A stretch of DNA of 61,305 bases from Eubacteriales bacterium (GCA_045644125.1 JAZRGJ010000103.1:1-61305), one strand, 5' to 3'. Shown: positions 36,314 through 55,311, counted from the first letter of the stretch. Numbers and translations: made by a program. The notes: a model not told the origin generated them from the sequence alone.

Positions 36314-36340
36314 TTCCGCCCGAAAACGCCGTCAGCAGAA

Positions 36341-36369
36341 CAGCCTCCGACAAGCGGAGGCTGTTTTTT
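36341..36369 (+). terminator. rho-independent terminator
   Basis: Stem CAGCCTCCG / CGGAGGCTG with loop ACAAG, followed by TTTTTT. Confidence 0.8.
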
Positions 36370-36370
36370 A

Positions 36371-37600
36371 TTACTGTTTTTTGAAAGTGATATTTCCCGA
36401 GTTATAAATAAACGTTCCGAAGAGCGTCCAGTAAACGAAAACTAATGCGTCGGGATTAAACTGCTTGTTCGGCATCTCACGGAGCATAACATTTTCTTTC
36501 GTATCGGCGCAAGCCTTTTCGGCATCTGCTTTCGCTTCTTCAAGGCTGTAATAAATCTTGGAATTTACCGAGCCGGATTCCGTATCAAACTTATATCTGA
36601 TATTTCCCCCCTTAAGAGCGAGGTAACGCGCGAGAACCTTTTCTGCGTGTTTCTTTTCTTCGCCGGACTTGATTTCAACGATTTTCGAGAGAATTTTTAT
36701 GCATGCGGAATTTGAGAGATAGCGATAAAGGCCGGTGCCCCATTGGGTGCTATTGGGATTTCCCGCGTTCTTATAATAATCCCAGAACTTAAGCTGACGC
36801 GCTTCATCGGGTGTAAGCTCGATCGCGTATTCGGGATCGGCTTTTACGTATCCCGCAGAGAGCTCATCTCCTTCGTCTATAACACCGGTGATAAACACTC
36901 CGAATATAATGCGCTCCGTTGTGCCGGGCATAACGGTTGTTAAAACTGCAAGTCCGTTCTGCTTTGCGTTTGTAATCCGACGAGCCTTATGCGCTCCATT
37001 GTCGTCGAGATTTTCACCGGCATACGCTCTCCACTCGGTGAGCATTCTTGATTCGTAACAAACGAAGCTTTCTTTATGTATAGCGAGGAGCTCGTCATAA
37101 CTGATCTCGCCTCTATAATAACGACCGCAAGGAGAGCCTGCATTTAAACACCAGGCGCGTTTTTCTTTTTCAATGTTATATTTGATCTGCTCGGGAGAGC
37201 ATACGCCCTTGAAGCCGATGCAAGAATGCGAGCAACCGCCATCGCAGAAATTGGCTTTGAAGGCAAGGTTGCCGTGTTCCTTATTCTTAAGCTCAGCAGC
37301 AGAAAGCGTGCGCTTCTTATTTCCTTCGGCTACCGTTCGAGCGTAATGGCGTCTGATTTCTTCTGCTTTAGCCGCTGCCTTTGCGCGCTCTTCGGCTTCT
37401 TTCTTTGCAACCGCCTCATCAGCAATAACCTTGACTTCGTTCTGCGCTTCAGCATCGGCAAACTTTAAGAACTCGGCAAAGACATCGGGGTAACGGAAAT
37501 TCAACGTCTTTCCGGGGAATTCTGCAGTGACGATATTGTTTTCGAACTTTACGATTACACCCTCTCCGAATGTTTTGTGAATGACTTTTTTGTTAAGCAT
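36371..37600 (-). CDS. hypothetical protein with an N-terminal UvrD/PcrA-C-terminal-like (Tudor/DUF3553-like) domain, a charged coiled coil and a Cys-rich central region
   Basis: 409 aa with a GGAGA RBS. N-terminus KVIHKTFGEGVIVKFENNIVTAEFPGKTLNF. The middle region is FCDGGCSHSCIGFKGVCSP...WCLNAGSPCGRYY. The gene is driven by copy 4 of the island operator/promoter. Confidence 0.6.
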   Translation of the reverse strand: MLNKKVIHKTFGEGVIVKFENNIVTAEFPGKTLNFRYPDVFAEFLKFADAEAQNEVKVIADEAVAKKEAEERAKAAAKAEEIRRHYARTVAEGNKKRTLSAAELKNKEHGNLAFKANFCDGGCSHSCIGFKGVCSPEQIKYNIEKEKRAWCLNAGSPCGRYYRGEISYDELLAIHKESFVCYESRMLTEWRAYAGENLDDNGAHKARRITNAKQNGLAVLTTVMPGTTERIIFGVFITGVIDEGDELSAGYVKADPEYAIELTPDEARQLKFWDYYKNAGNPNSTQWGTGLYRYLSNSACIKILSKIVEIKSGEEKKHAEKVLARYLALKGGNIRYKFDTESGSVNSKIYYSLEEAKADAEKACADTKENVMLREMPNKQFNPDALVFVYWTLFGTFIYNSGNITFKKQ

Positions 37601-37664
37601 TGTTAGTTCTCCTTTTTAATTAAATTTCCGGCAAAAATGCTGTTTTGATTTTGCTTACGCCTAT

Positions 37665-37699
37665 ATTATACATTCCTTGTTTTCGATAAATCGGGTTTT
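37665..37699 (-). promoter_or_regulatory. island promoter/operator copy 4 (AAAACCCGAT-N19-TATAAT, minus strand)
   Basis: The minus strand reads AAAACCCGATTTATCGAAAACAAGGAATGTATAAT. It has the same geometry as the three + strand copies. Confidence 0.65.
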
Positions 37700-37711
37700 G
37701 GTGAATTTTTT

Positions 37712-37733
37712 TAAAAAATTTCGAAATTTTTTA
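37712..37733. repeat. 22-nt perfect palindrome TAAAAAATTTCGAAATTTTTTA in the divergent control region
   Basis: Read directly from the sequence; it is self-complementary over all 22 nt. Confidence 0.8.
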
Positions 37734-37829
37734 TACCTCATGAAATTTAGTTGAAATAACATACAAAATATGATATGCTTAAATACAAGGAAAACGCGAG
37801 TTTAAAAAATATTTTTTCAAAAAGCCTTG

Positions 37830-37864
37830 AAAACCCGATTTATCAGATTTTTGTTTGATATAAT
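37830..37864 (+). promoter_or_regulatory. island promoter/operator copy 1 (AAAACCCGAT-N19-TATAAT)
   Basis: AAAACCCGATTTATCAGATTTTTGTTTGATATAAT. The preceding 25 nt (AAAAAATATTTTTTCAAAAAGCC) are also repeated at 41353-41375. Confidence 0.65.
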
Positions 37865-37892
37865 AAGACATCACAAAATGGAGGATAGACAC

Positions 37893-40079
37893 ATGGCAGA
37901 AAAAGACAGCGCAAAAAAAACGAATACGAAAAAAGCAAAAAACGAAAAAGAAAAGGTTAAAACCGATATAAATTCAGCAGCTATTTTAAATGTTCTTGAA
38001 AATTACTCAGGTCAGATAAAAAACGGTAAAATAGTTAAACTTACACTTGTTCAAATACAGCAGTATCTGAAGGAGTTTTTTGATGTTTCAATCAAAAGTA
38101 CAGACACGATTAAAGAAAATATAAGCGATCTTCAGGGGCTGGGCAATAAGTATCGCAATGCTTTTCCCATGATATTTTGCGATGGAAAAGACGAGGAAGA
38201 TGAAAAATCCTTCGAAAAAGATTTTGATGAAGAGTTCGTCTGCGAAGACAACTCAGAAAAAATCAACTCTCACAAAGTTAAGTATTATTGGATGCCGAAG
38301 AAAAACGTTTTGGATTCAGGAGAGTATAAAATCTTAAAAGCTAAAATTGAGTCGGACGTATCATTAAATTCTATTGAAAAGGCGAGCTTGATAAGAAAAA
38401 TTGATAGCATTTCTTCTAATGACTACACTCGTGAGCTGGGTTCTTTTGACCAAAATCCGACTGTTGACGTTGAGTCGCTGGGTAACAAAAACGTTTCAAA
38501 AAAGGTAGATACGATAGGAGAAGCAATAAGAGCAGGTATTAAGATTACGTTCTACAACGGCGCATATGACAAGAGCAAGAGCCTTGAAAAGATAGGTGAT
38601 GTAATTAAATTTTCTCCATATCATATTACGGATAAAAATGGATATGTTTATGTAATTGGATTGAAGGACGGAGAGACGTCCGCAACTTCCTACAGAATCG
38701 ACAAGCTTATAGACTTAAAAAAAGAAAAATCAAATTCCGATAACCGAGATAATTATAAAAATTTGCATCGTTACATAGAGTCGCATCCGTTTATGAGCAA
38801 CGACGAAAAAAATGTCGAAGCAATACTTAAGCTTCGGAAAAATATCACGTATGAACAGGATAATATCGGTGATGTTATTGATGCGTTTGGCTATACTCCT
38901 GTTATAACTGAAGACAAGAATGAGAATGACGAGTGTGAAGGATATACCGTTAAATTAAGCGCGACAGAAGAGGCAATTTATAAATTTGCTCTTTTGCATT
39001 CCGATGTGGTAGAGGTGAAATCTCCCGAAGGGTTGCGTAACCGTTTGCGTAAAATGTCCAAATATTCTTACGATAGTTATCTTTCAACTTATGAAGATTT
39101 CTATGAAGCGGAAATAGATAAAATTAAAGAAGGTGGCTTGGGACATAGCATAAAGAGGGAATTCCATTGTGAAGGCGTTGATCTTTCGAAAAGAACGGAA
39201 TACCATAATATACCTATCCTTCGTCTTTGCCTTGATAATAACAATGTTGAAGATATTTCGTTCGTTCGCAATTATAAAGATCTCTGCTCATTTAGAACAA
39301 GAAAGAATCCCATAGTTGATTATACGCCTTTATGTGATATTGATACAATTCAAGCAATGCAAATTATAGATTCGAAGCTTGAATCGTATGACTTTATAAA
39401 GAATTGCAAAAGTTTAAGAAAACTCACGCTTGATAATAACGAAGTGAAAGACAAATCTGCTTTATATACACCTTTACACCTTGATTATTTGGTTTTGTTT
39501 GATGAAGATGAAATAGATGTAGAGTTGTTTAAAAAAAGCAACCCTTTAACAGAGGTTTTGATTGGCTGGGACAAGTTGGATGATAAAAAATATTTCATTA
39601 ACCCCGTTTATCCGATTAATCGTAAATATACAGTACCACATAATTATCCGTTGAATATTTTTGCGGAATTTGCACCATCTCGCGCAAGAGAAATAATTGG
39701 ACAAAACGTATGCAACGAGGCCGACAAAATCATATCTACAGACTTGGAAATTGGGGCAAAGTTAGAGGCCATTATTGATGATTTTGGCATGAAAGAATCT
39801 AAAATTTTTCGTTCCATAGCTAAAGATGGCAAGACTATTGTTGAAACGGCTAAAGAGAATAACATGCGCATACAGGATGTTATAGACGTATTCGTGAAGT
39901 GTAGGAAGAGTTTTGGTTCAAAGCAAAATAGAGATTTTTTCATTGGTACATATAAAAAATATTATAAACCGCTCTATAAAAAGCCCACGACAACATCTAA
40001 CGCCGGCAATAACAGTAAAAGAGAAGAAAATAAAATTGCCGAATACAAGCTTAAAATTCGTAGAAAAAGATATGACTAA
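37893..40079 (+). CDS. WYL-domain transcriptional regulator (wHTH-WYL-WCX) fused to a C-terminal leucine-rich-repeat region
   Basis: The start is at the ATG at 37893 behind GGAGG. Features in order: a Lys-rich N-terminus; a wHTH-like segment ILNVLENYSGQ...LTLVQIQQYLKEFFDVSIKSTDTIKENISDL; a WYL-like core GYVYVIGLKDGETSATSYRIDKLIDL; a WCX-like segment VVEVKSPEGLRNRLRKM; then LRR-like repeats LRLCLDNNNVEDISFVRNYKDL..., LRKLTLDNNEVKDKSAL. Confidence 0.6.
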   Translation: MAEKDSAKKTNTKKAKNEKEKVKTDINSAAILNVLENYSGQIKNGKIVKLTLVQIQQYLKEFFDVSIKSTDTIKENISDLQGLGNKYRNAFPMIFCDGKDEEDEKSFEKDFDEEFVCEDNSEKINSHKVKYYWMPKKNVLDSGEYKILKAKIESDVSLNSIEKASLIRKIDSISSNDYTRELGSFDQNPTVDVESLGNKNVSKKVDTIGEAIRAGIKITFYNGAYDKSKSLEKIGDVIKFSPYHITDKNGYVYVIGLKDGETSATSYRIDKLIDLKKEKSNSDNRDNYKNLHRYIESHPFMSNDEKNVEAILKLRKNITYEQDNIGDVIDAFGYTPVITEDKNENDECEGYTVKLSATEEAIYKFALLHSDVVEVKSPEGLRNRLRKMSKYSYDSYLSTYEDFYEAEIDKIKEGGLGHSIKREFHCEGVDLSKRTEYHNIPILRLCLDNNNVEDISFVRNYKDLCSFRTRKNPIVDYTPLCDIDTIQAMQIIDSKLESYDFIKNCKSLRKLTLDNNEVKDKSALYTPLHLDYLVLFDEDEIDVELFKKSNPLTEVLIGWDKLDDKKYFINPVYPINRKYTVPHNYPLNIFAEFAPSRAREIIGQNVCNEADKIISTDLEIGAKLEAIIDDFGMKESKIFRSIAKDGKTIVETAKENNMRIQDVIDVFVKCRKSFGSKQNRDFFIGTYKKYYKPLYKKPTTTSNAGNNSKREENKIAEYKLKIRRKRYD

Positions 40080-40095
40080 GGAGAAGTGTGCTTAA

Positions 40096-41274
40096 GTGGA
40101 AAATAAGGATGGCTTTTATTATCACGTAAATGAAATAAACAAGCGCAATGACAGAAGCGGAAATGCGGCAATATATAATGCTTGCAAAAACAAGGGAAAA
40201 AACGTGTTTAATACTGCTGATGCGGAATTCCTGGAGGGAATGTTGTGGCTTATTGGCAGGTCATACGCAGCATCACCGCAAAGGCGATCATACGGTGTTA
40301 GCAGCAAAATGAAAGATGATGAACAGGGGAAAAAACGCGCGGTATGGCCTGTAAAAACCGAAAATTCAGGTAACGGAGATTTTTTTGCAGAAATTGCCGA
40401 TTACATTGTAAAACCTAAGGGAAAATCAAGAGAAGATTTAGCAAAGCTTAAAGACTGCTTGGAAAAATTGTCTTCGTATGAAAAACAACCGTATAATTTT
40501 GATTTTTCAAAAAATTCAGCAAATTGCGAAGATTTGCAACGGTTAATTTGTGTTGTTCAGAGCGTAAGCTTGTTTAACAGATTAATTAAAAGAGCCAGCG
40601 AACGCTTTGACTGCGTTCCGGGTGACAATATACATAAAATTGCCCCGAAGCACTCTAAGTCGGGAGTGGAAGAGAAGGAATACGTATATTGTAAAAACCA
40701 AATATCTTTTTGCAGCAAGTTTTTGCACTTTTTCTTCCCTAATTCCGTTTTTATAATCGATCAGTTTTCTGAAAAAGGAGCTAAGATAATTTTCCCTAAA
40801 AAAACTTCAAAAAAATACAAGTTTATATCTTCAACATACGTGGATGAATTCGATCCTCCTGAAAATGAGGTGTTTAATTTAAGCGGAACCATTGAAACTT
40901 TTAAAAGAAAACGCCAAGACATAATAAATATCATAAAAAAAATAGAAGAAAATGAAGAAATAAAAAAGGAATTTGAGGCAGATTCAGTAGAAATAGAAAA
41001 TCTTAAAGAAAGCAGTGTTAAGATAGAAAAAGACAGCGAAGATGTATCGACTAGCAGCGATAAAGCAAATGGGAAAGGCTATTCCGAACGGTATTTGATT
41101 CATTGTGTAAATTCGTACGTTCTTTGCTGTTTGTTGAAGGGGGAAATTGAAGCGCCGGTCGTTTCCTTTCCTCGCTTGTCCGATTCCGTTTTTATGCGAA
41201 TCAAAACCAAGAATAAACAAAACGCTTCTGCTAAAGAAAAGAGAAAAAAAATAAAAGAAATTTACGGAATATAG
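40096..41274 (+). CDS. hypothetical protein (392 aa), no recognisable motif
   Basis: A GTG start 9 nt after AAGGAGAAG and 16 nt after the WYL gene stop, so it is in the same operon. It has Lys/Glu-rich low-complexity stretches near the C-terminus. Confidence 0.5.
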   Translation: MENKDGFYYHVNEINKRNDRSGNAAIYNACKNKGKNVFNTADAEFLEGMLWLIGRSYAASPQRRSYGVSSKMKDDEQGKKRAVWPVKTENSGNGDFFAEIADYIVKPKGKSREDLAKLKDCLEKLSSYEKQPYNFDFSKNSANCEDLQRLICVVQSVSLFNRLIKRASERFDCVPGDNIHKIAPKHSKSGVEEKEYVYCKNQISFCSKFLHFFFPNSVFIIDQFSEKGAKIIFPKKTSKKYKFISSTYVDEFDPPENEVFNLSGTIETFKRKRQDIINIIKKIEENEEIKKEFEADSVEIENLKESSVKIEKDSEDVSTSSDKANGKGYSERYLIHCVNSYVLCCLLKGEIEAPVVSFPRLSDSVFMRIKTKNKQNASAKEKRKKIKEIYGI

Positions 41275-41293
41275 TAAATTAACTATAGTTATT

Positions 41294-41326
41294 AAGCGCA
41301 CCGCTTTTGGCGGCGCGCTTTTAATT
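41294..41326 (+). terminator. rho-independent terminator
   Basis: Stem AAGCGCACCGC / GCGGCGCGCTT (one mismatch) with loop TTTT and the trailing T-rich run TTTTAATTTT. Confidence 0.6.
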
Positions 41327-41378
41327 TTACCAAAAGTCTGATTCTTGGCGAGAAAAAATATTTTTTCAAAAAGCCGTG

Positions 41379-41413
41379 AAAACCCGATAAATCGGAAATT
41401 GCAAGCGTATAAT
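41379..41413 (+). promoter_or_regulatory. island promoter/operator copy 2 (AAAACCCGAT-N19-TATAAT)
   Basis: AAAACCCGATAAATCGGAAATTGCAAGCGTATAAT. It contains the perfect inverted repeat CCGAT-AA-ATCGG. Confidence 0.65.
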
Positions 41414-41444
41414 GGAGCCACAAAACAATAAATGGAGGTCAAAA

Positions 41445-42074
41445 ATGACAACAATTCGCAAGTGCCGAATTATACTCGGAACGGGAGAAGATATATTGGC
41501 AAATCTAAAAAAAACAAATCTATTTATCGGAGAAAATTCGTCAGCGGCTATTTATGCGCTGGCAGAAGCTTGTTGCGGAACGCATAATAGCGATTTAAAG
41601 ATGCGTTGTGTGAATTTTGAGTTTGAATATGATGAAAAAACTTACGTAGTGACGGCCGTTAGCGCCAAAGATGGAGCGACAGCTTTAGTAAAATATCCGG
41701 AAGATAATGAGGTTTTTAATGAAAGCGCTTTTTTGGAATTTAATTCTATAAGGGATGCGTTTTCTTATAACAGCAGAAACGTTTTCAAAAATGATAAGAT
41801 TGGCAAAATGGATAATTTATTATCCGATTCAGAAATAAGCATGCTTAATTACAAGGAGTTTGTCAAAGGATTGAAAAAGCGAGGCGAGGATAGACCGATT
41901 TTCATTTCCGGATTTTTCGAAAAAACAGACAAAGAGACGAGGGCTAAAATACTCGACGAATTATCGGCATTAACACCAAAATCCCAAATTTTTATAGCGG
42001 TTAGCAAAGACGTTTTTGGCGAAGAGTTTGAAGGAGAAAAAATATTTTTAGAAAAAATTTGGGATGTGGTATGA
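41445..42074 (+). CDS. hypothetical protein (209 aa); possibly a degenerate ABC/SMC-type ATPase head
   Basis: The start is at the ATG at 41445 behind GGAGG. NLFIGENSSAAIYALAEA occupies the place of a Walker A segment (NxIxGxNGSGKS) but lacks the GK[ST]. RPIFISGFFEKTD replaces a Walker B/D-loop. The similarity is weak. Confidence 0.45.
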   Translation: MTTIRKCRIILGTGEDILANLKKTNLFIGENSSAAIYALAEACCGTHNSDLKMRCVNFEFEYDEKTYVVTAVSAKDGATALVKYPEDNEVFNESAFLEFNSIRDAFSYNSRNVFKNDKIGKMDNLLSDSEISMLNYKEFVKGLKKRGEDRPIFISGFFEKTDKETRAKILDELSALTPKSQIFIAVSKDVFGEEFEGEKIFLEKIWDVV

Positions 42075-42108
42075 AAACCCGATAAATCGAAAATTAGAAG
42101 CGTATAAT
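42074..42108 (+). promoter_or_regulatory. island promoter/operator copy 3 (AAAACCCGAT-N19-TATAAT)
   Basis: AAAACCCGATAAATCGAAAATTAGAAGCGTATAAT. It starts at the stop codon of the preceding gene. The post -10 sequence (A/G)GAGCCACAAAA is shared with copy 2. Confidence 0.65.
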
Positions 42109-42153
42109 AGAGCCACAAAATAAAAAATGCATTTTTGACAAGGAGATAAAAAA

Positions 42154-42792
42154 ATGATGGATTTTAATAAATTCCCGATTTTATACGAAGAAGGGACAAG
42201 AGAGCTTGTGGAGGAATTTATATTTGATCACTTCGAGAGCTTAGATGACGGAATGATTTGTCATGAGATGGAATCGGAGTACGTACATAGCGATGTCTAT
42301 AATTTCAGCAGCGGATTTGTTGAAGGCTCTCGTTTGTATGTCACGTGCGGAATGGGCGCTCGTTCGCAGAACAGCTTGCGTCCGGGATACGATCATATTG
42401 AGCTTATGATGTTTGGAAGCGAAAATCTCAAGAATGATATTGACGTGATAAATCAGTTGGTAAACTTATCAAAATATCCCTTCCGCAATTCGAGTTGGTT
42501 AGGTCCTTTTCATACCATTAATGTTACAGAAAAAATCAAAGAAAAGTTCGGATTTTCTTACCTGTGGTTTCTCCCGGAGTTTGCAGAGCTTGAAGTGACG
42601 GATGGCTTTGAAACGTACACGGTTAAGTTTTTGCCGCTTGCGCCTCTCTATGAGGATGAAAGAGACGTGTTGGCGCGTATGGACGAATCGAGCGAAGAGC
42701 TTAGAAATAAACTTCTTGAGGCTTTGCAAGAAAACGTCAGTATGTTTCATATAGACGTTTCAAGACTTAGCTTGGCTACCGATCTTTTTTAG
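42154..42792 (+). CDS. SUFU-like (suppressor-of-fused family) domain protein, putative immunity-type protein
   Basis: The pattern YVHSDVY...LYVTCGMGARSQN...HIELMMFGSEN...LSKYPFRNSSWLGPFHTINV matches the bacterial SUFU-like domain layout (vH.D, T.GMS, ELm, W..L..la.yp, gHt). Confidence 0.45.
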   Translation: MMDFNKFPILYEEGTRELVEEFIFDHFESLDDGMICHEMESEYVHSDVYNFSSGFVEGSRLYVTCGMGARSQNSLRPGYDHIELMMFGSENLKNDIDVINQLVNLSKYPFRNSSWLGPFHTINVTEKIKEKFGFSYLWFLPEFAELEVTDGFETYTVKFLPLAPLYEDERDVLARMDESSEELRNKLLEALQENVSMFHIDVSRLSLATDLF

Positions 42793-42833
42793 CGCTGTTA
42801 AAAACTTAAATCTAAAGAGATGGAAGAATCAAT

Positions 42834-43220
42834 ATGTTTTTTGTTATTTATAACCCAAAAGATAAATTGAGAGATGAAATAGATTCCATTTTTAAAACCG
42901 ACGTTTTGCGTTTCTCGGAATATATGCAAAAAGAGCGCAGAAAACCGGAGAACAAGGAACTTTTTATCGCAGGTGAAGGAACTGTTATAACTCGTCTTCT
43001 TGAAAAGGCAGCAACGGACGATGGGCTTTTGAATGAATACAAAGCTATTATGTTTGACGAGGATATTATTGCAAAAATCGATGAGGCAACTGAAATAAAA
43101 CCGTACTTTGCAAAGCTCTTGAATTCATGGATGGTGATATTTTATTGCGCTAAATACGAAAGTACAATTATCCGCCTTAAAGAGACCGAATTGTGTGACG
43201 ATATTTTTGAAATGAATTAA
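42834..43220 (+). CDS. hypothetical protein (128 aa)
   Basis: An ORF with the coding-strand context of the operon. No recognisable motif. Confidence 0.45.
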   Translation: MFFVIYNPKDKLRDEIDSIFKTDVLRFSEYMQKERRKPENKELFIAGEGTVITRLLEKAATDDGLLNEYKAIMFDEDIIAKIDEATEIKPYFAKLLNSWMVIFYCAKYESTIIRLKETELCDDIFEMN

Positions 43221-43237
43221 ATAAAAGGAGACTAAAA

Positions 43238-44494
43238 ATGAGTGCATTTGATAAAATTATAGGTTTTGATTCGATAAAGAACGATTTGCTTGGGATTATA
43301 GACATTATTAAAAATCCCGATATTTATCGCAGCTTAGGAGCTGAAGTTCCTCACGGAGTTATGCTTGAGGGAGATCCCGGAATGGGTAAGACGTTGATGG
43401 CTAAAGCATTTATAGAGGAGTGCGGAATTCCTTCTTTCGTTATAAGAAGATCGAAGTCTTCCGAACATTTCATTGCTGAGATGAACAACGTATTTGAAGA
43501 AGCTTCAAGACATGGTAGGGCTGTGATTTTGCTTGATGACATTGACAAAATGGCTCCGGAAGAAAATAATAGCCAGGAGTATTCGGTGCTTCAGGCGTTA
43601 ATAGACTCCGTTCACGACAAGGAAGTCTTCATTATCGCAACCGCAAATTGTACTCACGACCTTCCTGATAGTCTCAAAAGAGCAGGTAGATTTGACCGTT
43701 GGATAATGGTAAGATCGCCCTCCAGAGCGGATGGGGAGAAGATAGTTAAGTATTACATATCCAAGAAGCCTATTTCCGAGGACGTGAATCTTGAAGACGT
43801 GTGTAAGATGCTTTCGTATCGCTCGTGCGCAGCCATTGATTCCGTAGTAAACCTTGCGGCTATTATGGCAGGGCGCGCTCGTTCTGAAAAAATAATGATG
43901 AATCACTTGGTAAATGCGACATTGACAGAGGCTTACGGATTGATTGATACCTGCGAAGGACTTTCCCACGAAGAAAGAGAAATGGTTGCATATCACGAGG
44001 CGGGCCACGCAGTTATATGCGACATAATAAAGGAAGGCAGCGTCGGCGTTGTAAGCATTTGCTCTAATCAGAGAGCTGACAAGGGTGGATTTATGTTGCG
44101 TTGTGATGAGCTTGAGAGACGTCCGTATGATATTCTCGTAAGCCTTGGCGGTAAAGCCGCATGTGAGATAAAATATGGCAAAGTTGCATCCGGCACAAAG
44201 GGCGATCTCACTAAGGCATGTCATAATATCAATATATCTACAAAGTGTATGGGGGCATACGGAGTTGCTAACATCGGATTTGGTAGTGAATCGGAGTTCC
44301 AAGATCAGAGAAGCGAAATTATAGTGACTGCCGAGCTTGAAAGATATCTCTTTAAGGCTAAAGAAATTCTCGCTGAAAACCGCGAATATCTCGACAAGCT
44401 TGCATCGGCGCTTTACGAGAAAGAAACGCTTCTGAATTCGGAGATTGCAGCAATCCGCGCGACTTGTACGATCAAGCCTGCGGTTGTGGGATAA
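43238..44494 (+). CDS. soluble FtsH-like AAA+ ATPase / M41 zinc metalloprotease lacking the N-terminal membrane anchor
   Basis: Walker A GDPGMGKT, Walker B ILLDDID, second region of homology ATANCTHDLPDSLKRAGRFDR, zinc site HEAGHAV, and downstream LGGKAACEIKYG...SGTKGDLTKA (the FtsH third-ligand region). No TM segment precedes the AAA module. Confidence 0.75.
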   Translation: MSAFDKIIGFDSIKNDLLGIIDIIKNPDIYRSLGAEVPHGVMLEGDPGMGKTLMAKAFIEECGIPSFVIRRSKSSEHFIAEMNNVFEEASRHGRAVILLDDIDKMAPEENNSQEYSVLQALIDSVHDKEVFIIATANCTHDLPDSLKRAGRFDRWIMVRSPSRADGEKIVKYYISKKPISEDVNLEDVCKMLSYRSCAAIDSVVNLAAIMAGRARSEKIMMNHLVNATLTEAYGLIDTCEGLSHEEREMVAYHEAGHAVICDIIKEGSVGVVSICSNQRADKGGFMLRCDELERRPYDILVSLGGKAACEIKYGKVASGTKGDLTKACHNINISTKCMGAYGVANIGFGSESEFQDQRSEIIVTAELERYLFKAKEILAENREYLDKLASALYEKETLLNSEIAAIRATCTIKPAVVG

Positions 44495-44549
44495 TCGACA
44501 TGACGAAAATGGCAACAAAATATGGATTTTAACAAATGTGGGGTGCAGT

Positions 44550-45038
44550 ATGAATATCGAGAGTGAATATACGTTGGATGACGTTCTGGCAATGTTTCCT
44601 ACCGAGCCAAATAGAAAATGCGCTTTGCATCTTTTGCCAAGCGCGCTAGACTTCGTGCGCAAAAGTGATACCGAGTTTGGTACGGCGCAAATGCAAAAAC
44701 ATTTGAAAGCCGGATACGGTCAGACTGCAAAGGTAATAGATGCGCTTATCGCTTTATGCGTAATAGAAATTGCCGAAGAAAAACCTCGCAAATATAAAAG
44801 GCTTTGCGAGAAAAGTGAAATTCAGCACGACGTTTATTATAACGGTCACGTTCACGAGGCAGATAATGAGCTTAAAAGCGGCTGGGATCCTGCGCTTTTC
44901 AGAACCGAAGAGGAGTGTCTTAACTATATAAAAAATACTTATTCGGAGTTTGAAAATCCCGTGTATGTGATAGAAAAAGTTCGCATAGGCGGTGATGTTT
45001 GGGAGATTATCGATCGCCAAGAAATAAAGGATAAATGA
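44550..45038 (+). CDS. FtsK-gamma-like winged-helix domain protein
   Basis: The start is at the ATG at 44550. FGTAQMQKHLKAGYGQTAKVIDALIALCVIE parallels the FtsK gamma consensus S.s.LQR.L.IGY.RAArliD.LE..Giv. Confidence 0.5.
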   Translation: MNIESEYTLDDVLAMFPTEPNRKCALHLLPSALDFVRKSDTEFGTAQMQKHLKAGYGQTAKVIDALIALCVIEIAEEKPRKYKRLCEKSEIQHDVYYNGHVHEADNELKSGWDPALFRTEEECLNYIKNTYSEFENPVYVIEKVRIGGDVWEIIDRQEIKDK

Positions 45039-45275
45039 AAAAAGAGATATTATGAATTGCAGAGTAATAGGAATCGGCGGCGCCGGTAGGAATATATTAA
45101 AAGCTTTGCTTGAATAATCGAAACGGTTTTCAAAAAATGATGCTCCGATGGATCAAGTCCAAATTTATCCCAAACAGTTTGGCATCATATAAACGTAAGG
45201 CGGCGAAGTCTCGAAGCCCGGCGCCTTGCTGATTTGCAATCAAATATCATGGATGACGAGAAATATGACGGATAA

Positions 45276-45665
45276 AGAAAAAATATTATACGACTTTTAC
45301 GACAGTCTACGGTAACGCTGCCGAATTCTTTAACGTAGATTGAAAAATATGCCTTTGCGTATCGAAGAAGCTTAAAAAGCGTAAACTTACCGGATAGCAT
45401 AAAAATCATTCATGAGTATGCTTTTTACGATTGCGCGCGGCTTGAAGAAATCGTAATACCACCCAAGGTTTCGTATATCGCTGTCGAAATGTTCCGAGGA
45501 TGTTCATCTCTTAAAAGCGTCATTCTCACTGAAAATATATCATGCATAGGAAGCTTAGCCGGTGTAATTGATATAGACGAATATGCGTTTTGCGGATGCA
45601 AAAATTTAACTATCGAAAGAATGATCGACAAAGATTCATCAGTAATCATACCCACGAAATTTTAA
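45276..45665 (+). pseudogene. decayed fragment of a BspA-type leucine-rich-repeat protein (in-frame TAG at 45336-45338, no start codon)
   Basis: Manual translation in one frame gives ...STVTLPNSLT*IEKYAFAYRRSLKSVNLPDSIKIIHEYAFYDCARLEEIVIPPKVSYIAVEMFRGCSSLKSVILTENISCIGS...DEYAFCGCKNLTI. This is the LRR_5/BspA repeat pattern (IP.sV..I...AF..C..L). Confidence 0.5.
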
Positions 45666-45683
45666 AAGTCCAGGAGAAGAGTA

Positions 45684-48600
45684 ATGGCAAAGGAACAGAT
45701 AAATAGGATAGAGTCCGAGGAAGATGCTGTATTAGCGGCAAAAGAGAAAAAAGACGTATATCATAGTTTTTTCAACAGCCTTATGAAAGGCGGCGAAATC
45801 TTCACTTGCGATGATATAGAACTTGCAATTGAGGCGCTTCAGCTTAGTAAACTCGATATTAAAGAAAGAGAAGACAAAAAGCGCAGAGAGCGAGAAGCCG
45901 AGCTTCTGAAGCAGAAACTAATTGAAGATGAAGAGCGCAGAAGAGCGGCTGAGGAACGCGCAAGAAAAAGAGCACAGAGAGCACGTGAAAAACGAGCGGA
46001 AGAAATCAGCGCCATGGAGCTCCCTCTCGACTTTGTTAATACTTTTGAGGATGACGCAAGAGCTAACGTTCATTGCGATACTATTGCAGAAGGACTTCTT
46101 GTATCCCTTGATTGCCTTGGTATCGTTGATATCGAGTTCATCTCTTCCATCACAGGCGAGGAAATGAAAACGGTTATCGAAACGCTTAAGGGCTCAATTT
46201 ATCAGAACCCTCTTATGTGGGACGAATGCTTTTACAAGGGATGGGAAACTGCGGACGAGTATCTTTCGGGAAATCTTATGCACAAGCTCAGTCTTGCCGA
46301 GGATGCAAACGAAGAATATCCCGGTATTTTCGCAGAGAACATTAAGGCTTTGAAAGAAGTTATCAGTCCCGATATCGCAAGAGACGATATTTACGTTACG
46401 CTCGGTTCTCCTTGGGTTCCTGCCGACGTAGTAGACGATTTTATACTCCATCTTGTCGGTCTTGATAAAAATGCTGACGGCGATTATCCCGAGGAAGCAG
46501 AGCCTTTCCTTACACCTGATTATATGACGGCACATGATCCGACAACAGGTCTTTGGGATATTCCGCTAAAACGAAGATTTCGTAAAAGCCATTCTCACGG
46601 AAAATGGGAAAAGTATAATTATGAGATCTGGGGAACTGAACGCATGGATATGCTCTATCTTATGGAGAATATCCTCAATATGAAAACACTTGCAGTTTAC
46701 GATCAGATAGACGAAAAAACAAGAAAGCTTAATCAGTCGGAAACGGTCAAAGTGCTTGAAAAGCAGGACAAGATGATTGCCGAATTTCAGAAATGGGTGT
46801 GGGAAGATGAGAAGAGAGCTGCGCGCATCCAATCGGCATATCAGAGAAGATACGGAAATATTAAAAAACGAGTTTTTAACGGATCATTCCTTGAATTCCC
46901 GGATATGAATCCCGAAATCGAGCTCAGAGCTCACCAAAAGGATTCCGTTGCAAGAATAATTTTCTCTCCGAATACATTACTTGCGCACGACGTTGGCGCG
47001 GGCAAAACCTATACGATGATTGCTGCCGGTATGGAGCTTCGCAGACTTGGAAAGTCGAAGAAGAATATGTACGTAATTCCCAACAACATTATGCCTCAGT
47101 GGGTTGAAATGTTCAGAAAGATGTACCCGAAAGCAAATCTTCTCGTTGTAAACAACAGAAACTTCTGCTTGAAAAAGCGTAACGAAACCTTAAAAAAGAT
47201 AATCAACGAGGATTTCGATGCTATTCTGATTACATATTCAAGCTTCGATCAGCTTTCTCTTTCAAAAAAGTATTACGAAGACTTTTACGAAAAGCAGCTT
47301 GCAATACTCGATAAGGCAAAGGAAAACTTCTATTCCAAGGCAAAAATCGAGAAAAAGCAAGAGATAGTTCAAAAGGCGCTCATGAAGCTGGAGAAAGCGA
47401 CAACCTCCGATATTTGTGATATAGCATTTGACGAGCTCGGAATCAACACACTCTTTGTGGACGAAGCCCATAATTACAAGAACGTATCGGTAGCAACGGG
47501 CATTACCAGAGTGCGCGGAATATCATCTCAAGGCTCGAAGAAATGCGATGGAATGATGGACAAGATTCACTGCGTACAAAGACAGAATCACGGTGGCAGA
47601 GTTATTCTCGCAACCGGAACACCTATCACCAACAGTATTACGGACCTCTTTATTCTTCAGAAGTATTTGCAGGACGGAGAGCTCGAATTCCTTGGTATTC
47701 AGAACTTTGACGCTTGGGTTGCTACATACGCAAAGAAAACCACCGAGTTTGAGGTTGATATTGATACGAGTAATTACCGCCTGGCAACAAGATTTTCCCG
47801 TTTCTTTAACGTGCCGGAGCTTACGTCAATTTTGTCGTCCGTTGCTGATTTTTATCACGTTGACCAAAGCGTAGGAATTCCCGAATTTGAGGGATATACG
47901 GACTCTCTTGCTGACGGAAGCGAAGACTTCATGGACTATCTTAAGGATATTTCCTCAAGAGCGGATGACGTCAGAGAGAAAAGAGTCAGCCCTAAGGAAG
48001 ATAACCTTCTTAAAATCACGACCGACGGTAGAAAAGCGGCGCTTGACATGCGACTTATCGACCTTGTTTACGGTCTTGATCCCGATTCCAAGGTGTATAG
48101 ATGCGCAGAAAACATCATGCGAATCTATGATGAGACGAGAGATAAAAAGCTTATTCAAATGGTATTTATAGATCAGTCAACGCCTAAAGCCGGGTTCAAC
48201 CTTTACGATGAGCTTAAGAGCATTCTCAAGGCTATGGGAATGTCGGAGCACGAGATAGCATACATTCACGATGCAAGCACTGAAGCCAAGAAAAAGCTTC
48301 TGTTCCGAGATTTGCGACTTGGAAACGTTGCAGTCGTTATCGGTTCAACCTTTAAGATGGGACTTGGTGTTAACGTGCAGAAAAAGCTTTGCGCGCTTCA
48401 TCACATGGACGTACCGTGGAGACCTGCGGATATGGTGCAGCGAGAGGGACGAATACTGCGTCAGGGAAACCTTTGTAAATCTGTAAAAATATTCAGATAT
48501 ATCACTAAGGGATCGTTTGATGCGTATTCCTGGCAGCTTCTTGAGGCTAAGCAGAGATTTATAAGCCAGATACTTTCCGGACATGCGACTATTCGTGAGG

Positions 48601-49316
48601 GAAGCGACATTGATGAATCGGTGCTTAACTATGCAGAGGTCAAAGCACTTGCTGTTGGTAATCCCTTGATGAAGAAGCGAATCGAGCTTATGAACGAGCT
48701 TGATAAATACAAAATTCTTAACCGCGATTACGTTGAGCAAAGAATTAAGAAGCAGGAGGAGCTTGCTTCTATCCCCGAAAAAATAAATCTTCAAAAGAAG
48801 CACATATTTAACACGAAGCGCGATATTGAGTATTACGAAAATAACAAGATTGATTACAATGAAATTCCCAAGGAAGAGCAAAAGGAAATTCGTCAGAAAA
48901 TTTTCGATGCGGTAAGAACGCACATAAATATGCCGATCGAAAAGAAGGTGCTTACTTATCAGGGATTTGACGTAGTCGTTCCTGCAAGAATGCGTCCAAA
49001 GGAAATTACGGAAAAATCAAAGGTTGAAGGTCAGAGAGGTAAAACCAAGAGCATTCCGTACGTATTTGTAAAGAGAAACGGAGCGCATTACATGGAAATC
49101 GAAAGCGTTTCCGGAATTACCAAGAGATTAAACAACCTTCTTGAAAATCTCGGAGAAAGACTTAAAAACCAGGAAAGCTATCTTGAGGCGCTCTTGCAGA
49201 AAGAAAAGGATCTTCGTGAGGAGCTTAGCTGTGAAGGCGAGTCTTACGTAGAGGAAATGGAATTGCTCAAAGAAGAAATATTAAAAATAAGTGAGGAGCT
49301 TGGACTTGTAGCATGA
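45684..49316 (+). CDS. SNF2-family (superfamily 2) helicase with a long N-terminal extension
   Basis: 1210 aa. Motif I HDVGAGKTY, II FVDEAHNYKN, III LATGTPITNS, VI QREGRILRQGN. The N-terminus contains an Arg/Glu/Lys coiled coil (KKRREREAELLKQKLIEDEERRRAAEERARKRAQRAREKRAEE) and a region (TLGSPWVPADVVDDFILHL) reminiscent of the large helicase/methylase proteins of mobile elements. No methyltransferase motif was seen. Confidence 0.8.
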   Translation: MAKEQINRIESEEDAVLAAKEKKDVYHSFFNSLMKGGEIFTCDDIELAIEALQLSKLDIKEREDKKRREREAELLKQKLIEDEERRRAAEERARKRAQRAREKRAEEISAMELPLDFVNTFEDDARANVHCDTIAEGLLVSLDCLGIVDIEFISSITGEEMKTVIETLKGSIYQNPLMWDECFYKGWETADEYLSGNLMHKLSLAEDANEEYPGIFAENIKALKEVISPDIARDDIYVTLGSPWVPADVVDDFILHLVGLDKNADGDYPEEAEPFLTPDYMTAHDPTTGLWDIPLKRRFRKSHSHGKWEKYNYEIWGTERMDMLYLMENILNMKTLAVYDQIDEKTRKLNQSETVKVLEKQDKMIAEFQKWVWEDEKRAARIQSAYQRRYGNIKKRVFNGSFLEFPDMNPEIELRAHQKDSVARIIFSPNTLLAHDVGAGKTYTMIAAGMELRRLGKSKKNMYVIPNNIMPQWVEMFRKMYPKANLLVVNNRNFCLKKRNETLKKIINEDFDAILITYSSFDQLSLSKKYYEDFYEKQLAILDKAKENFYSKAKIEKKQEIVQKALMKLEKATTSDICDIAFDELGINTLFVDEAHNYKNVSVATGITRVRGISSQGSKKCDGMMDKIHCVQRQNHGGRVILATGTPITNSITDLFILQKYLQDGELEFLGIQNFDAWVATYAKKTTEFEVDIDTSNYRLATRFSRFFNVPELTSILSSVADFYHVDQSVGIPEFEGYTDSLADGSEDFMDYLKDISSRADDVREKRVSPKEDNLLKITTDGRKAALDMRLIDLVYGLDPDSKVYRCAENIMRIYDETRDKKLIQMVFIDQSTPKAGFNLYDELKSILKAMGMSEHEIAYIHDASTEAKKKLLFRDLRLGNVAVVIGSTFKMGLGVNVQKKLCALHHMDVPWRPADMVQREGRILRQGNLCKSVKIFRYITKGSFDAYSWQLLEAKQRFISQILSGHATIREGSDIDESVLNYAEVKALAVGNPLMKKRIELMNELDKYKILNRDYVEQRIKKQEELASIPEKINLQKKHIFNTKRDIEYYENNKIDYNEIPKEEQKEIRQKIFDAVRTHINMPIEKKVLTYQGFDVVVPARMRPKEITEKSKVEGQRGKTKSIPYVFVKRNGAHYMEIESVSGITKRLNNLLENLGERLKNQESYLEALLQKEKDLREELSCEGESYVEEMELLKEEILKISEELGLVA

Positions 49317-50425
49317 GTGAAATAAGAACAAATATGCCGTCTCTTTCTGTTGAAAGGACGATAACAACACTGACACGCGCGTATACTTCGGTAATCGAAA
49401 AGGGACTTTCTCCGAAGATACTTCCTTCGGTTATGATGTGGGGGCCTCCCGGCGTAGGTAAATCGCAAGCAGTAAGAGCGATTGCCAAGGATATAGAGAA
49501 AAAGACGGGAAAAACGGTTAAAATCACTGACGTAAGACTTCTTCTCTTTAACCCCATTGACCTTAGAGGAATCCCCACTGCAAACGCAGATAAAACCCTC
49601 GCAATATGGTTAAAGCCTCAGATATTTCAGATGTCTGACAGCGATGATATAATAAACATACTTTTCCTCGACGAGATTTCGGCAGCTCCGCAATCCGTGC
49701 AAGCCGCGGCGTATCAGATAACGCTTGACAGAGTCGTAGGTGAGCATAAGCTTCCCGATAACTGCATCGTTATTGCCGCGGGTAACCGTGTTACGGATAA
49801 GTCGGTATCATTTAAGATGCCCAAAGCGCTCGCAAACCGTCTTTTGCATATAGAGGTCGAGGGAAGCTTTGGCTCATGGAAAAATTGGGCTGAAAGGAGC
49901 GGAATAAATAAAAAGGTTCTCGGTTTCCTTTCTTTCAGAACGGACAAGCTCTTCGGCTTTGACGCAAAGAATGACGATCTTGCATTCGCAACGCCTCGTT
50001 CATGGGAAATGGTATCCAATATTCTCAATAACGTATGTGATGATGTAAGCGCAATGTACCCTATGATTGCAGGGCTTATCGGCTCGGGACTTGCTCTTGA
50101 ATTTCGCTCGTGGTGCGGAATGAATTCCGATCTTCCGGACATTGAGGGCATCTTTGACGGAACTGAATTCACTATTCCCAAGACCTCCGATGCGATGTAT
50201 GCGGTTATAACGAGCATGGCAGATTACGCCAAAGACCATAAATACGAAACCGAAAGGATTGGCAACTCCTTAAACTACGCTTCAAAATTCCCGGCTGATT
50301 ACGTTGCGATACTTCTTAAAGAGTACGAAGCGATAGATGAAGAGTATAAGGACGTGCTTCTTGATATACCTGAATATACCGACCTCATAAGCAAGAGGGG
50401 AGTTTTGCGTAATGGCAGAGTATGA
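49313..50425 (+). CDS. MoxR-like AAA+ ATPase (AAA_5 / CbbQ-NorQ-CobS class)
   Basis: Walker A GPPGVGKS, Walker B ILFLDEIS, sensor region IVIAAGNRVTDKS. There is an ATGA overlap with the helicase stop. Confidence 0.8.
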   Translation: MSEIRTNMPSLSVERTITTLTRAYTSVIEKGLSPKILPSVMMWGPPGVGKSQAVRAIAKDIEKKTGKTVKITDVRLLLFNPIDLRGIPTANADKTLAIWLKPQIFQMSDSDDIINILFLDEISAAPQSVQAAAYQITLDRVVGEHKLPDNCIVIAAGNRVTDKSVSFKMPKALANRLLHIEVEGSFGSWKNWAERSGINKKVLGFLSFRTDKLFGFDAKNDDLAFATPRSWEMVSNILNNVCDDVSAMYPMIAGLIGSGLALEFRSWCGMNSDLPDIEGIFDGTEFTIPKTSDAMYAVITSMADYAKDHKYETERIGNSLNYASKFPADYVAILLKEYEAIDEEYKDVLLDIPEYTDLISKRGVLRNGRV

Positions 50426-53911: not shown

Positions 53912-53932
53912 CGGAATTGGTGGAAAGGAAAA

Positions 53933-54295
53933 ATGACCGTAAACGATGATTTTATAATTGTTGATACCATTACAGAAAAAACAACAATACAAGGTAAAAA
54001 ACGCAAAAATCTCAAAACGGTTGTTATTCCGGAAGGCGTAAAAACAATTTCCGGCAGCGCTTTTTGTGGCTGCGAAAACCTTAAAGCCATATATATTCCC
54101 GGAAGTATACAAATGATTCAGCCTTTCGCTTTCAAAGGCTGTGATAAATTAAGAAATGTATATATTGAAAAAACAGCATGGGATTTCAATGGGTTATATG
54201 AGCTTAAAAACTGTAAGAATGCAGTCCTGTACGGATCGGGGTGCTATTTTAGAGAATTTGCTTCGAAGATCAATCTTCCATATGTTGAAGCGTAA
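53933..54295 (+). CDS. short BspA-type leucine-rich-repeat protein (no signal peptide)
   Basis: LKTVVIPEGVKTISGSAFCGCENLKAIYIPGSIQMIQPFAFKGCDKLRNVYI is the LRR_5 pattern. Confidence 0.6.
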   Translation: MTVNDDFIIVDTITEKTTIQGKKRKNLKTVVIPEGVKTISGSAFCGCENLKAIYIPGSIQMIQPFAFKGCDKLRNVYIEKTAWDFNGLYELKNCKNAVLYGSGCYFREFASKINLPYVEA

Positions 54296-54395
54296 GTGAT
54301 ATATATATAAACTCTGCGATTATTGCGTATTGCAAAACATATAAAATTGTAATATAATAAATTCAAAAGATAAAATTATAAAAGGAGGACTAAAA

Positions 54396-54833
54396 ATGAT
54401 TTGCACAGCAGAAGAATTAAAAATTAAAGTAAACAAAGCGCGACTCATGTCGAGAGCTGAATTGATGGAAAACGAGGACAAGCTTCCTGAGGTGTCATCT
54501 TGTTACTGGTGGCTTTCGGACCTTGATGAAAATGATGAAGATTACGTAGCTTATGCAGAGGGCAATTACACCGAAGAGGATATGTATTGCGATAAAACCG
54601 ACGGTAATACGTATATCAGAGTGGCTCTTGAAATAACATCTGACGGCGTAAAGAATGGCTCTGAATTTGTTTATTGCGGTTACTTATTTACCGTTCTTTC
54701 AGATACCCTGGCCATATCAAACAACTTCATAGGTAAATCAAAGTACTATGACGAAGATTTGCTCGATTACATATATACCGATGAAGAAATCACATGTACA
54801 CTTACCTATACCATTGCAGATATGATATTTTGA
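54396..54833 (+). CDS. hypothetical acidic protein (145 aa)
   Basis: An AAGGAGGA RBS. No recognisable motif. A TTGCAA-N17-TATAAT promoter lies at 54330-54358. Confidence 0.5.
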   Translation: MICTAEELKIKVNKARLMSRAELMENEDKLPEVSSCYWWLSDLDENDEDYVAYAEGNYTEEDMYCDKTDGNTYIRVALEITSDGVKNGSEFVYCGYLFTVLSDTLAISNNFIGKSKYYDEDLLDYIYTDEEITCTLTYTIADMIF

Positions 54834-54850
54834 TAGCTTTTGGTCCAAAT

Positions 54851-54879
54851 TTGTCCTAGTGAATGTTGTATCATATAAA
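54851..54879 (+). promoter_or_regulatory. promoter with atypical -35 (TTGTCC-N17-TATAAA), family copy a
   Basis: TTGTCC at 54851-54856 and TATAAA at 54874-54879. Confidence 0.45.
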
Positions 54880-54938
54880 TGTAAGCGAACCCGCGAGGTA
54901 AGCGCTGAAAACATTTATATTTTGGAGGTAAATTTACT

Positions 54939-55297: not shown

Positions 55298-55311
55298 AGA
55301 GAAAACGATAG

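Follow-up and report, generated by a model that had tools for sequence, protein, structure and literature searches.

Positions 36371 to 45038 of a 61,305-nt stretch of DNA from a gut Clostridia metagenome-assembled genome (Eubacteriales bacterium, GCA_045644125.1, JAZRGJ010000103.1:1-61305; the whole stretch is called the window here) contain eight genes in four transcription units, each of which starts behind the same conserved element. Do these genes form one dedicated conflict or defence system, or is something else held under a common switch? A preliminary description had presented them as a candidate WYL-gated module, consisting of a WYL regulator with leucine-rich repeats (WYL-LRR), a soluble FtsH-like AAA+ zinc protease, a SUFU-like protein, a small FtsK-gamma-like protein (g162) and four proteins that it could not place, referred to here as g409, g392, g209 and g128. 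All eight open reading frames (ORFs) are present as it gave them. We read the block, with about even confidence, as a regulon specific to one genomic island of the mobile-element type, and not as a fixed eight-gene system.

Four promoters of one design

A scan of the window for AAAACCCGAT-N19-TATAAT returned exactly four matches, all with zero mismatches even when two were allowed, against 0.07 expected from shuffled sequences (0 of 100 shuffles reached four). Their coordinates and strands are those reported before, each lies at the correct position before a transcription unit, and the view that the eight genes share one operator and promoter, and thus form one regulon, is borne out. The first of these class A promoter/operators (37665-37699, minus strand) drives g409. 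The second (37830-37864, plus strand) drives the WYL-LRR gene together with g392, and is the sole copy with TGn right before TATAAT, which makes an extended -10. The third (41379-41413, plus strand) drives g209, and the fourth (42074-42108, plus strand), which overlaps the stop codon of g209, drives the genes for the SUFU-like protein, g128, the protease and g162. The distance from each of the four copies to a start codon with a ribosome-binding site is 40-60 nt.

The element is longer than had been noted. Alignment of 160 nt around each copy revealed the conserved unit AAAAAATATTTTT(T)CAAAAAG..TGAAAACCCGATWWATCG..GTATAAT(A/G)GAGCCACAAAA, in which the A/T tract AAAAAATATTTTT(T)CAAAAAG is followed by (T)GAAAACCCGATWWATCG, a variable stretch, GTATAAT and then a conserved initial transcribed region, (A/G)GAGCCACAAAA. 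The core is an identical 12-bp palindrome, CCGAT-WW-ATCGG, with its centre ~31 bp 5' of the predicted start (counted with TATAAT as -12 to -7). The -10 matches the consensus TATAAT, and the hexamer 17 bp 5' of it reads CGATTT or CGATAA; the class A promoters are therefore without a -35 element. A generic sigma-70 scan called none of the class A sites. When AAACCCGAT was searched with one mismatch allowed, no extra copy was found before any gene, and the regulon therefore consists of these four promoters. The class A promoters are sigma-A-type and head four transcription units with eight genes. Among 92 related loci (described below), in which the motif was sought with up to three to four substitutions allowed, only chance-level matches were found.

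Two other promoter types were considered and rejected. The sequence TGAAA(A/C) followed by CGTATA is reminiscent of a promoter for an extracytoplasmic function (ECF) sigma factor of the sigma-W kind, but the spacing is 23 nt and not 16-17 nt, and TGAAA is not conserved at the g409 promoter. Frpo-like single-strand promoters were dropped as well, since folding of the four class A promoters as single-stranded DNA was no better than that of shuffled sequences (z 0.1-0.7).

The protease, its candidate regulator and the accompanying proteins

The most widely conserved gene of the module is that of the FtsH-like AAA+/M41 zinc protease (43238..44494, plus strand). Both Pfam domains score over their cut-offs (AAA 75 bits, 8.7e-21; Peptidase_M41 64 bits, 1.7e-17). 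The protein covers positions 160-598 of the FtsH model TIGR01241, with a score of 209 against a cut-off of 600, and it aligns full length with the constructs used for crystallography of soluble FtsH, starting at residue ~19 of the latter. The first ~160 model positions, which correspond to the transmembrane and periplasmic region, are absent, in agreement with the soluble character proposed earlier. Identity to true FtsH is ~30%. Invariant in 25 homologues are the Walker A G-K-T, D100-D101, Arg148/151, the zinc-binding H253-E254-x-x-H257 (HEAGH) and E310. With its ATPase and protease residues intact, the anchorless enzyme appears catalytically competent at the sequence level. The whole ~420-aa family has an Asp-Asp Walker B, a pore loop that is short by four residues and a conserved C-terminal TI.PA.VG tail, and these three features, which define the family, may matter for its mechanism. 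PHROG and phage searches recovered only full-length or distant (27-30% identity) phage FtsH genes, and a prophage assignment was not possible.

The WYL-LRR gene (37893..40079, plus strand) heads its unit. The start was placed at ATG 37893 (728 aa), 3' of a GGAGGA ribosome-binding site, because a longer ORF would begin within the promoter. The protein has a winged helix-turn-helix (HTH), WYL and WCX part (~25-390), internalin-type leucine-rich repeats (LRRs; ~437-565) and a basic tail. The Pfam WYL score of 17.1 bits is under the cut-off of 21.8, while PADLOC gave a WYL match at 9.5e-15. In hhalign, residues 26-391 align with positions 30-345 of 359 of the canonical HTH-WYL-WCX family over 312 columns (probability 100%, E 5e-65). 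The profile of this canonical ~330-aa family in turn matches the structures of PafC, PafBC and WYL-domain proteins (7e-10 to 6.5e-7), and one of its members scores for both WYL (5.6e-9) and WCX (1.2e-8) in Pfam. The LRR part is weak in Pfam and matches the LRR structures of Roco proteins and internalins at 2e-16 to 5e-13. Long WYL-LRR proteins likewise occur in four related loci (L005, L034, L082 and L084). The call of a WYL-LRR regulator stands, and the protein can be described as a predicted transcription factor of the PafBC/DriD class in which HTH, WYL and WCX are complete and to which an LRR is attached, a fusion that is previously undescribed and that is a new feature for this class. Because the class A element is also found at its own promoter, WYL-LRR is the obvious candidate regulator of the class A promoters.

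The second gene of the WYL-LRR unit, g392 (40096..41274, plus strand), has no family in any library. Its AlphaFold2 (AF2) model is confident, with a predicted local distance difference test score (pLDDT) of 86 and a predicted template modelling score (pTM) of 0.89, and Foldseek found nothing matching in the PDB (best E 3.8) or the BFVD (best E 0.95). The family counts 1028 representatives of 50% clusters at E<=1e-3, and Pfam gave nothing significant for 10 distant members, with one sub-threshold match at E 0.0076. As judged from the model, g392 may be a new fold. A g392 homologue adjoins a WYL gene in loci L001 and L002.

The minus-strand gene g409 (36371..37600, start at 37600) encodes a protein with an N-terminal Tudor domain of the UvrD/PcrA C-terminal type (~1-48), as well as a long helix, a region rich in Cys and a core rich in beta structure. 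The mean pLDDT of its AF2 model is 78. In Foldseek, residues 1-48 match 7egt_B (TM 0.79, root-mean-square deviation 2.0, 31% identity) and also 7egs_B, the UvrD C-terminal domain on the RNA polymerase beta lobe; a profile search reached 7egt_B at E 0.2, and beyond the Tudor domain there was no structural match. Searches of Pfam, PADLOC, PHROG and NCBIfam gave nothing for g409, and the region shared by its 117 homologues is without a Pfam domain in all of them. Residues 331-409 form an extension that is absent from the ~330-aa relatives that make up most of the family; nine matches are also 409 aa long. The Tudor motif HK.FGEG.V is common to the N-terminus of g409 (37539-37590, minus strand) and the C-terminus of a Sel1-repeat protein further along the window (58203-58254, plus strand), and this likeness is visible in the DNA as well (71% over 52 nt). 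Two proteins of the island thus carry a probable RNA-polymerase-binding module.

The gene g209 (41445..42074, plus strand) belongs to a family that lies directly 5' of the protease gene in other loci, as does g128 (42834..43220, plus strand), a shorter family member that ends 18 bp before the protease gene. Iterated profiles join g209 to g128-type proteins with E values of 1e-17 to 1e-22, and an alignment of the two shows a common C-terminal motif, RPIFI..F..(I/V)DEA, followed after a 17 nt-equivalent spacer by RQVFIAV; pairwise BLAST between them was not significant. We consider them to be distant paralogues, as their profiles indicate. The idea that they are degenerate halves of an ABC/SMC-type ATPase, with GENSSA as a P-loop-like and RPIFI..DEA as a Walker-B-like motif, was abandoned: the only match was a marginal one of g209 to PADLOC AriA (E 0.0025), and a profile search of the PDB gave nothing.

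The SUFU-like protein (42154..42792, plus strand) matches Pfam SUFU at 7e-16 (59 bits against a cut-off of 25), as had been called, and homologues are found in L082, L084 and L044. Polymorphic-toxin immunity proteins would be expected next to a toxin, and searches of the neighbours of the SUFU-like gene with Pfam, PADLOC and NCBIfam gave no toxin domain. The last gene of the unit, g162 (44550..45038, plus strand), encodes a small protein with an FtsK-gamma-like winged helix and no motor. The Pfam match exists, so that part of the earlier call stood, but with 18.9 bits it is under the FtsK_gamma cut-off of 30.6 and is suggestive only; there was no sequence match in the PDB. The match gains weight because the equivalent gene in locus L086 encodes a 354-aa fusion of FtsK_SpoIIIE and FtsK_gamma (FtsK_gamma 30.9 bits). 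Further g162 homologues lie 3' of the protease gene in L002, L081, L082, L084 and L094.

In a system-level comparison with PADLOC-DB v2, the block gave single generic-domain matches (WYL, an IetA-type AAA and the marginal AriA), none for g409, g392, SUFU, g128 and g162, and no system. We also found no description in the literature, in keeping with the statement that no named system has this composition.

Related loci and the surrounding island

To see how the genes travel, we used a sample of 80 genome loci with protease homologues from species-representative genomes (GTDB), among at least 426 confirmed places, to which 15 further loci (close relatives and homologues of g409 and g392) and one plasmid were added, 95 related loci altogether. 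The tblastn counts below refer to the 80 genome loci and those from iterated profiles to 85 loci. By tblastn, WYL was found in 12 loci, the DarB-like gene of the right arm (see below) in 12, MoxR in 10 and VWA in 9, and g409, g392, g209, SUFU, g128 and g162 in 0-2 each. The iterated profiles raised WYL to 35, with the g209 family in 7, g128 in 6 and g162 in 4; the six non-core genes were in 2-7 each. The distance between the WYL and protease genes varies: in 11 loci the WYL gene is at most 700 bp away on the same strand, in 29 of the 35 WYL loci the nearest one is within 5 kb and in the other 6 it is further off. When only loci with at least 5 kb on both sides of the protease gene were considered, 18 of 39 had a WYL gene within 5 kb.

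What recurs is sub-cassettes and not the full set, which contradicts the eight genes as a conserved unit. A g128/g209-family gene lies directly 5' of the protease gene in the window and in L004, L005, L042, L081-L084, L086 and L094. In L081-L084, L086 and L094 it is g128 itself, at 28-77% identity, and there the core cassette of g128, protease and g162 is kept; the 221-225-aa proteins at the same position in L005 and L042 are linked to g128 by profiles. On the 3' side of the protease gene, a gamma-domain gene and/or a gene for a DNA P-loop ATPase recurs, the latter being FtsK_SpoIIIE in L082 and L086, DnaB_C in L084, Bac_DnaA in L094 and DnaA/Hda in pCY186. In this Butyrivibrio plasmid, the neighbours of a 34%-identical protease are two WYL genes, one HIRAN gene and genes of the plasmid replisome (Rep, dnaX, PolC, DnaB and DnaA/Hda). 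The order is WYL-LRR, a 202-aa gene, SUFU, g128, protease and g162 in L082, and WYL, g209, SUFU, protease and g162 in L084. Distant homologues of g409 and g392 in small cassettes had no AAA/M41 or WYL gene annotated within 10 kb, and these two genes thus also occur alone. Recurrent neighbours of the protease in the 80 loci include defence genes (retron reverse transcriptase, type IV restriction enzyme, PbeA and MADS), ADP-ribose and NAD enzymes (Macro, ADP-ribosylglycohydrolase), phosphatases, and the mobility genes for a relaxase and TnpV.

The most informative relative is L086, in which the protease is 90% and g409 83% identical to those in the window. Here, g409, g128, the protease and the FtsK-gamma fusion form a compact island of ~8 kb between mnmG-ymdB-rny and GH16-GtrA; WYL-LRR, g392, g209 and SUFU were not detected in this locus by tblastn, and there were no mobility genes within 10 kb. 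In L086 and L093, g409 (79-83% identical) stands behind a different repeated operator, TTGACAAAATCGTCACATG, with copies in divergent promoter regions, including 5' of g409 (L086 6932-6950, 9845-9862 and 9931-9949; L093 1839-1857 and 1926-1944). A 361-aa gene of L086 with a weak C-terminal HTH_11 match is a candidate regulator there. Since the same cargo is on different switches in different islands, we argue that the regulator is island-encoded. The operator likewise belongs to the island and not to the cargo, which comparison of these loci shows to be a mosaic of separately mobile cassettes, one with g409, one with WYL-LRR and g392, one with g209 and one that combines SUFU, g128, the protease and g162.

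Nor is the block self-contained, since it continues into a second regulon. On its left lie housekeeping genes (pyrC, carB, pyrK, pyrD, pyrB, an MFS transporter, a glutamate symporter and a manganese catalase), which confirms the pyr, MFS and catalase flank, and the higher AT content noted by eye is real: the GC content is 0.44-0.51 at 18-36 kb against 0.34-0.38 at 38-43 kb. We place the left border of the island at a terminator-like GC-rich hairpin with a T-run (36337..36367, plus strand; 13-pair stem, 7 GC pairs), which separates the catalase gene from the 3' end of g409 and to the right of which the GC content drops. All genes from 37.9 to 61.3 kb are co-oriented, and the eight-gene block is the left arm of an island of at least 25 kb.

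The right arm (45164..58540, plus strand) encodes a DarB-like SNF2 helicase, a MoxR AAA protein, a DUF2201 metallopeptidase-VWA protein, an NAD-dependent ligase, a BspA-LRR protein, a PARG-NMNAT fusion, Sel1-Tudor and ankyrin-repeat proteins, and unknowns. Its class B promoters (45164-45192, 54850-54878, 55367-55395, 57061-57089 and 58512-58540, all plus strand) read TTTRTCY-N12-TATMATMTAA, and a GGAY half-site 5' of this completes a GGACAAATTTGTCC-like palindrome at the -35 position. They head the units of the DarB-like, MoxR, VWA and ligase genes, of PARG-NMNAT, of the Sel1 protein and of g196. The island thus consists of at least two regulons of moron-like cassettes with one common promoter design. 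The DarB-like protein (45684-49316, plus strand; 1210 aa) has a PHROG match at 1e-232 to a profile for giant polyvalent antirestriction proteins. Of the 4647 positions in this profile, the match takes up 2105-3184, and the DarB-like protein resembles the helicase segment of such a giant, standing by itself; its gene is found with the MoxR and DUF2201-VWA genes in ~10 related loci. The PARG-NMNAT fusion (55428-56990, plus strand) combines an NMN/NaMN adenylyltransferase (TIGR00482, 4e-22) with a microbial PARG, or TIGR02452 macrodomain-type hydrolase (2e-30). Going by these domains, it could both resynthesise NAD and remove ADP-ribose, as do enzymes that counter immunity based on NAD depletion or ADP-ribosylation.

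The 640-bp gap between the two regulons (45040-45680) holds a decayed BspA-type LRR_5 gene, in frame 0 with stops, that matches LRR proteins of L078 and L062 at 1e-15 to 1e-19, as well as a 21-codon remnant, MNCRVIGIGGAGRNILKALLE, matching the start of a gene in L084. Five window proteins that were looked up were each a singleton 90% cluster. A near-identity DNA search with 36.4-61.3 kb against phage and plasmid collections returned nothing. The window is an entire contig, and exact-protein look-ups with its proteins led to no other one. It ends inside the island, as is usual where an assembly breaks at mobile or repeated DNA.

Possible working and function of the regulon

On this basis a working scheme can be proposed. 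WYL-LRR would bind the palindrome as a dimer and control all four units, including its own. Three points give us a modest preference for ligand-dependent activation, with WYL-LRR replacing the -35 contact, over repression: the promoters have no -35 element, their spacing is rigid, and PafBC, the nearest relative that has been solved, activates its targets. The WYL domain would be triggered by a signal derived from nucleic acid, possibly together with a protein sensed by the LRR. The induced protease, presumably hexameric, would degrade a specific DNA-associated target, with g128 as presumed adaptor and the gamma-like winged helix of g162 as presumed DNA tether, and the outcome would serve a conflict of the element with its host or with rival elements.

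Several observations weigh against parts of this scheme. The palindrome might be bound by g162 or a host factor in place of WYL-LRR, and its location at -31 is also a classical repressor position; PafBC and DriD are activators, while BrxR and CapW, WYL factors of defence systems, are repressors. The adaptor and tether roles of g128 and g162 derive from adjacency, and the gamma score of g162 is below the Pfam threshold. As for the protease, its Walker B is LLDDID, with Asp for Glu at the catalytic position, and its pore loop is four residues shorter than that of FtsH, with Phe78 invariant, so that unfoldase activity is not assured. The earlier notion of a WYL-gated protease module holds insofar as a WYL gene is present in 35 of 85 loci and heads one of the units here, but fewer than half of the protease loci have a WYL gene within reach, which makes the link frequent and not obligatory. 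Finally, there is no integrase, relaxase, attachment (att) site or tRNA in the window, which ends inside the island, and the mobility of the latter is something we infer.

How do other explanations compare with an island-specific regulon? That all eight genes cooperate in one WYL-gated system dedicated to defence against phages or plasmids, whose effector is the protease, would account for the shared promoter and for the retron, type IV restriction, PbeA and MADS genes near the protease in other loci. WYL factors also commonly head defence operons (Picton 2022 and Blankenchip 2022, as cited elsewhere), and L086 is a compact island between housekeeping genes in which mobility genes are not visible. 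The set is not conserved, however: any one of the six non-core genes turned up in 0-7 of 85 loci, and the g409 and g392 families are found alone; L086, with its 90%-identical protease, has no detectable WYL-LRR, g392, g209 or SUFU; and PADLOC gave no system-level match. We regard this explanation as improbable. A different possibility is that the block belongs to that arm of a conjugative or phage-like element which acts early or serves establishment or counter-defence, and that it is expressed on entering a new host. There, defence or stress proteins of the host would be removed by the protease and toxins neutralised by the SUFU-like protein, and g409 would manipulate the RNA polymerase of the host. 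The adjacent DarB-like antirestriction-type helicase gene, which is co-oriented with the block and linked to the protease in 12 of 80 loci, speaks for this, as do the PARG-NMNAT fusion, NAD-dependent ligase and MoxR-VWA genes in the same orientation, the Macro, ADP-ribosylglycohydrolase and phosphatase genes among the neighbours, and the RNA-polymerase-binding-type Tudor domain of g409. Moreover, anti-defence genes are known to cluster in the leading regions of plasmids (PMC11541004). Yet relaxase, origin of transfer (oriT) and type IV secretion system (T4SS) genes are absent from the window, which ends before the island does, the class A promoters have no single-strand hairpin signal of the kind seen in Frpo-type leading-region promoters, mobility genes are missing within 10 kb of the L086 island, and bona fide defence genes occupy the same neighbourhoods. 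In our estimate this is rather unlikely.

The replisome contexts suggest yet another role, namely that the protease cassette controls replication or segregation in a large plasmid-like element by turning over an initiator, loader or translocase, comparable to host proteases acting on DnaA or lambda CII. The position of the pCY186 protease among replication genes, the FtsK_SpoIIIE, DnaB_C and Bac_DnaA ATPases 3' of the protease in relatives, and the resemblance of g162 to the DNA-binding gamma domain of FtsK would fit. Set against this, genes for a replication initiator or for partition are absent from the window, the ATPase partner varies by locus and is missing in the window, the cassette is also found in small chromosomal islands, and an inducible WYL-controlled promoter is atypical of housekeeping replication genes; we consider such a role quite unlikely. 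Within the reading as an island-specific regulon, there is a slight lean towards a function for the element, in establishment or counter-defence, over host defence: the counter-defence-type neighbours and the replisome contexts point to the element, and the WYL gating, the defence neighbours and the compact L086 island to host defence.

Comparison with known systems brings out what is particular to this island regulon. PafBC in mycobacteria and DriD in Caulobacter, WYL activators of DNA-damage regulons, have the same HTH-WYL-WCX architecture as WYL-LRR. The promoters subject to 'sigma adaptation' by PafBC combine a good -10 with a motif at a fixed upstream position and lack a -35, like those of class A. 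Unlike PafBC and DriD, WYL-LRR has an additional C-terminal internalin-type LRR, and its regulon consists of island cargo and not of recA or repair genes. BrxR of BREX and CapW of CBASS are similar in that a WYL factor heads a conflict module, with a palindromic operator over the promoter and probable autoregulation; they are repressors of single operons with defined effectors, whereas here there are four dispersed promoters and heterogeneous cargo, and PADLOC detected no BREX or CBASS genes. Like FtsH, the protease joins AAA and Peptidase_M41 in a single chain and has HEXXH, the Glu that serves as third zinc ligand, Walker A and the arginine fingers; it differs in lacking the membrane anchor, in its DD instead of DE Walker B, in the pore loop that is 4 residues shorter and in the low TIGR01241 score (209 versus 600). 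IetAS also combines a classic-clade AAA ATPase (PADLOC IetA 1.9e-16; NCBIfam IteA_antiphage 3.8e-11) with protease activity on mobile DNA, but there the protease is a separate subtilisin-type protein and here a fused M41 metalloprotease. The likeness is confined to the generic AAA domain (IteA_antiphage 42.8 against a cut-off of 510), and the window has no subtilase (IetS). The ImmR/ImmA switches of integrative and conjugative elements and prophages resemble the block in pairing a DNA-binding regulator with a metalloprotease on mobile DNA. ImmR is an XRE-type repressor, and ImmA, a small zinc protease of COG2856, has no ATPase; no homology to ImmR or ImmA was detected.

A similar theme, with other components, is found in the ARG-centred, WYL/Nudix-regulated ADP-ribose counter-systems predicted in other phyla by Iyer et al. 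2022 (PMC9503650), in which a WYL factor predicted to sense a nucleotide-derived signal is accompanied by a variable mosaic of accessory genes. Their vWA, calcineurin-like phosphatase, Macro and HIRAN partners are also found around the protease in related loci. The class A regulon differs from them in having no ADP-ribosylglycohydrolase, and the protease is not among their described parts. Full-text literature searches found no description of a WYL and soluble FtsH-like system, and the association is widespread and uncharacterised. WYL-gated conflict modules are well known, and to our knowledge no characterised one uses an ATP-dependent FtsH-type metalloprotease. We are likewise aware of no study of this protease family, which is abundant in human and animal gut Clostridia.

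A bolder and more tentative proposal, possible but short of what we expect, sees in the anchorless FtsH-like proteases, with at least 426 places in species representatives of gut and rumen Clostridia, a new class of effectors that are inducible and act by proteolysis in element-host conflicts. They would often be WYL-gated, including by WYL-LRR with possible sensing of both nucleic acid and protein, and would use g128-type adaptors and FtsK-gamma-type tethers for DNA-bound substrates, with g392 as a new fold. The WYL-LRR fusion and the confident but unmatched model of g392 are of structural-biology interest in themselves. The class A design, with a palindrome in place of the -35, swappable cargo and a second promoter class adjacent, offers a clean test of PafBC-like sigma adaptation in Firmicutes and may show how islands bring new cargo under one switch. 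If the protease had a clear phenotype, be it in defence, counter-defence or maintenance control, regulated AAA+ proteolysis would join the mechanisms of element-host conflict, and the function of hundreds of variable islands of the gut microbiome would become more accessible as well.

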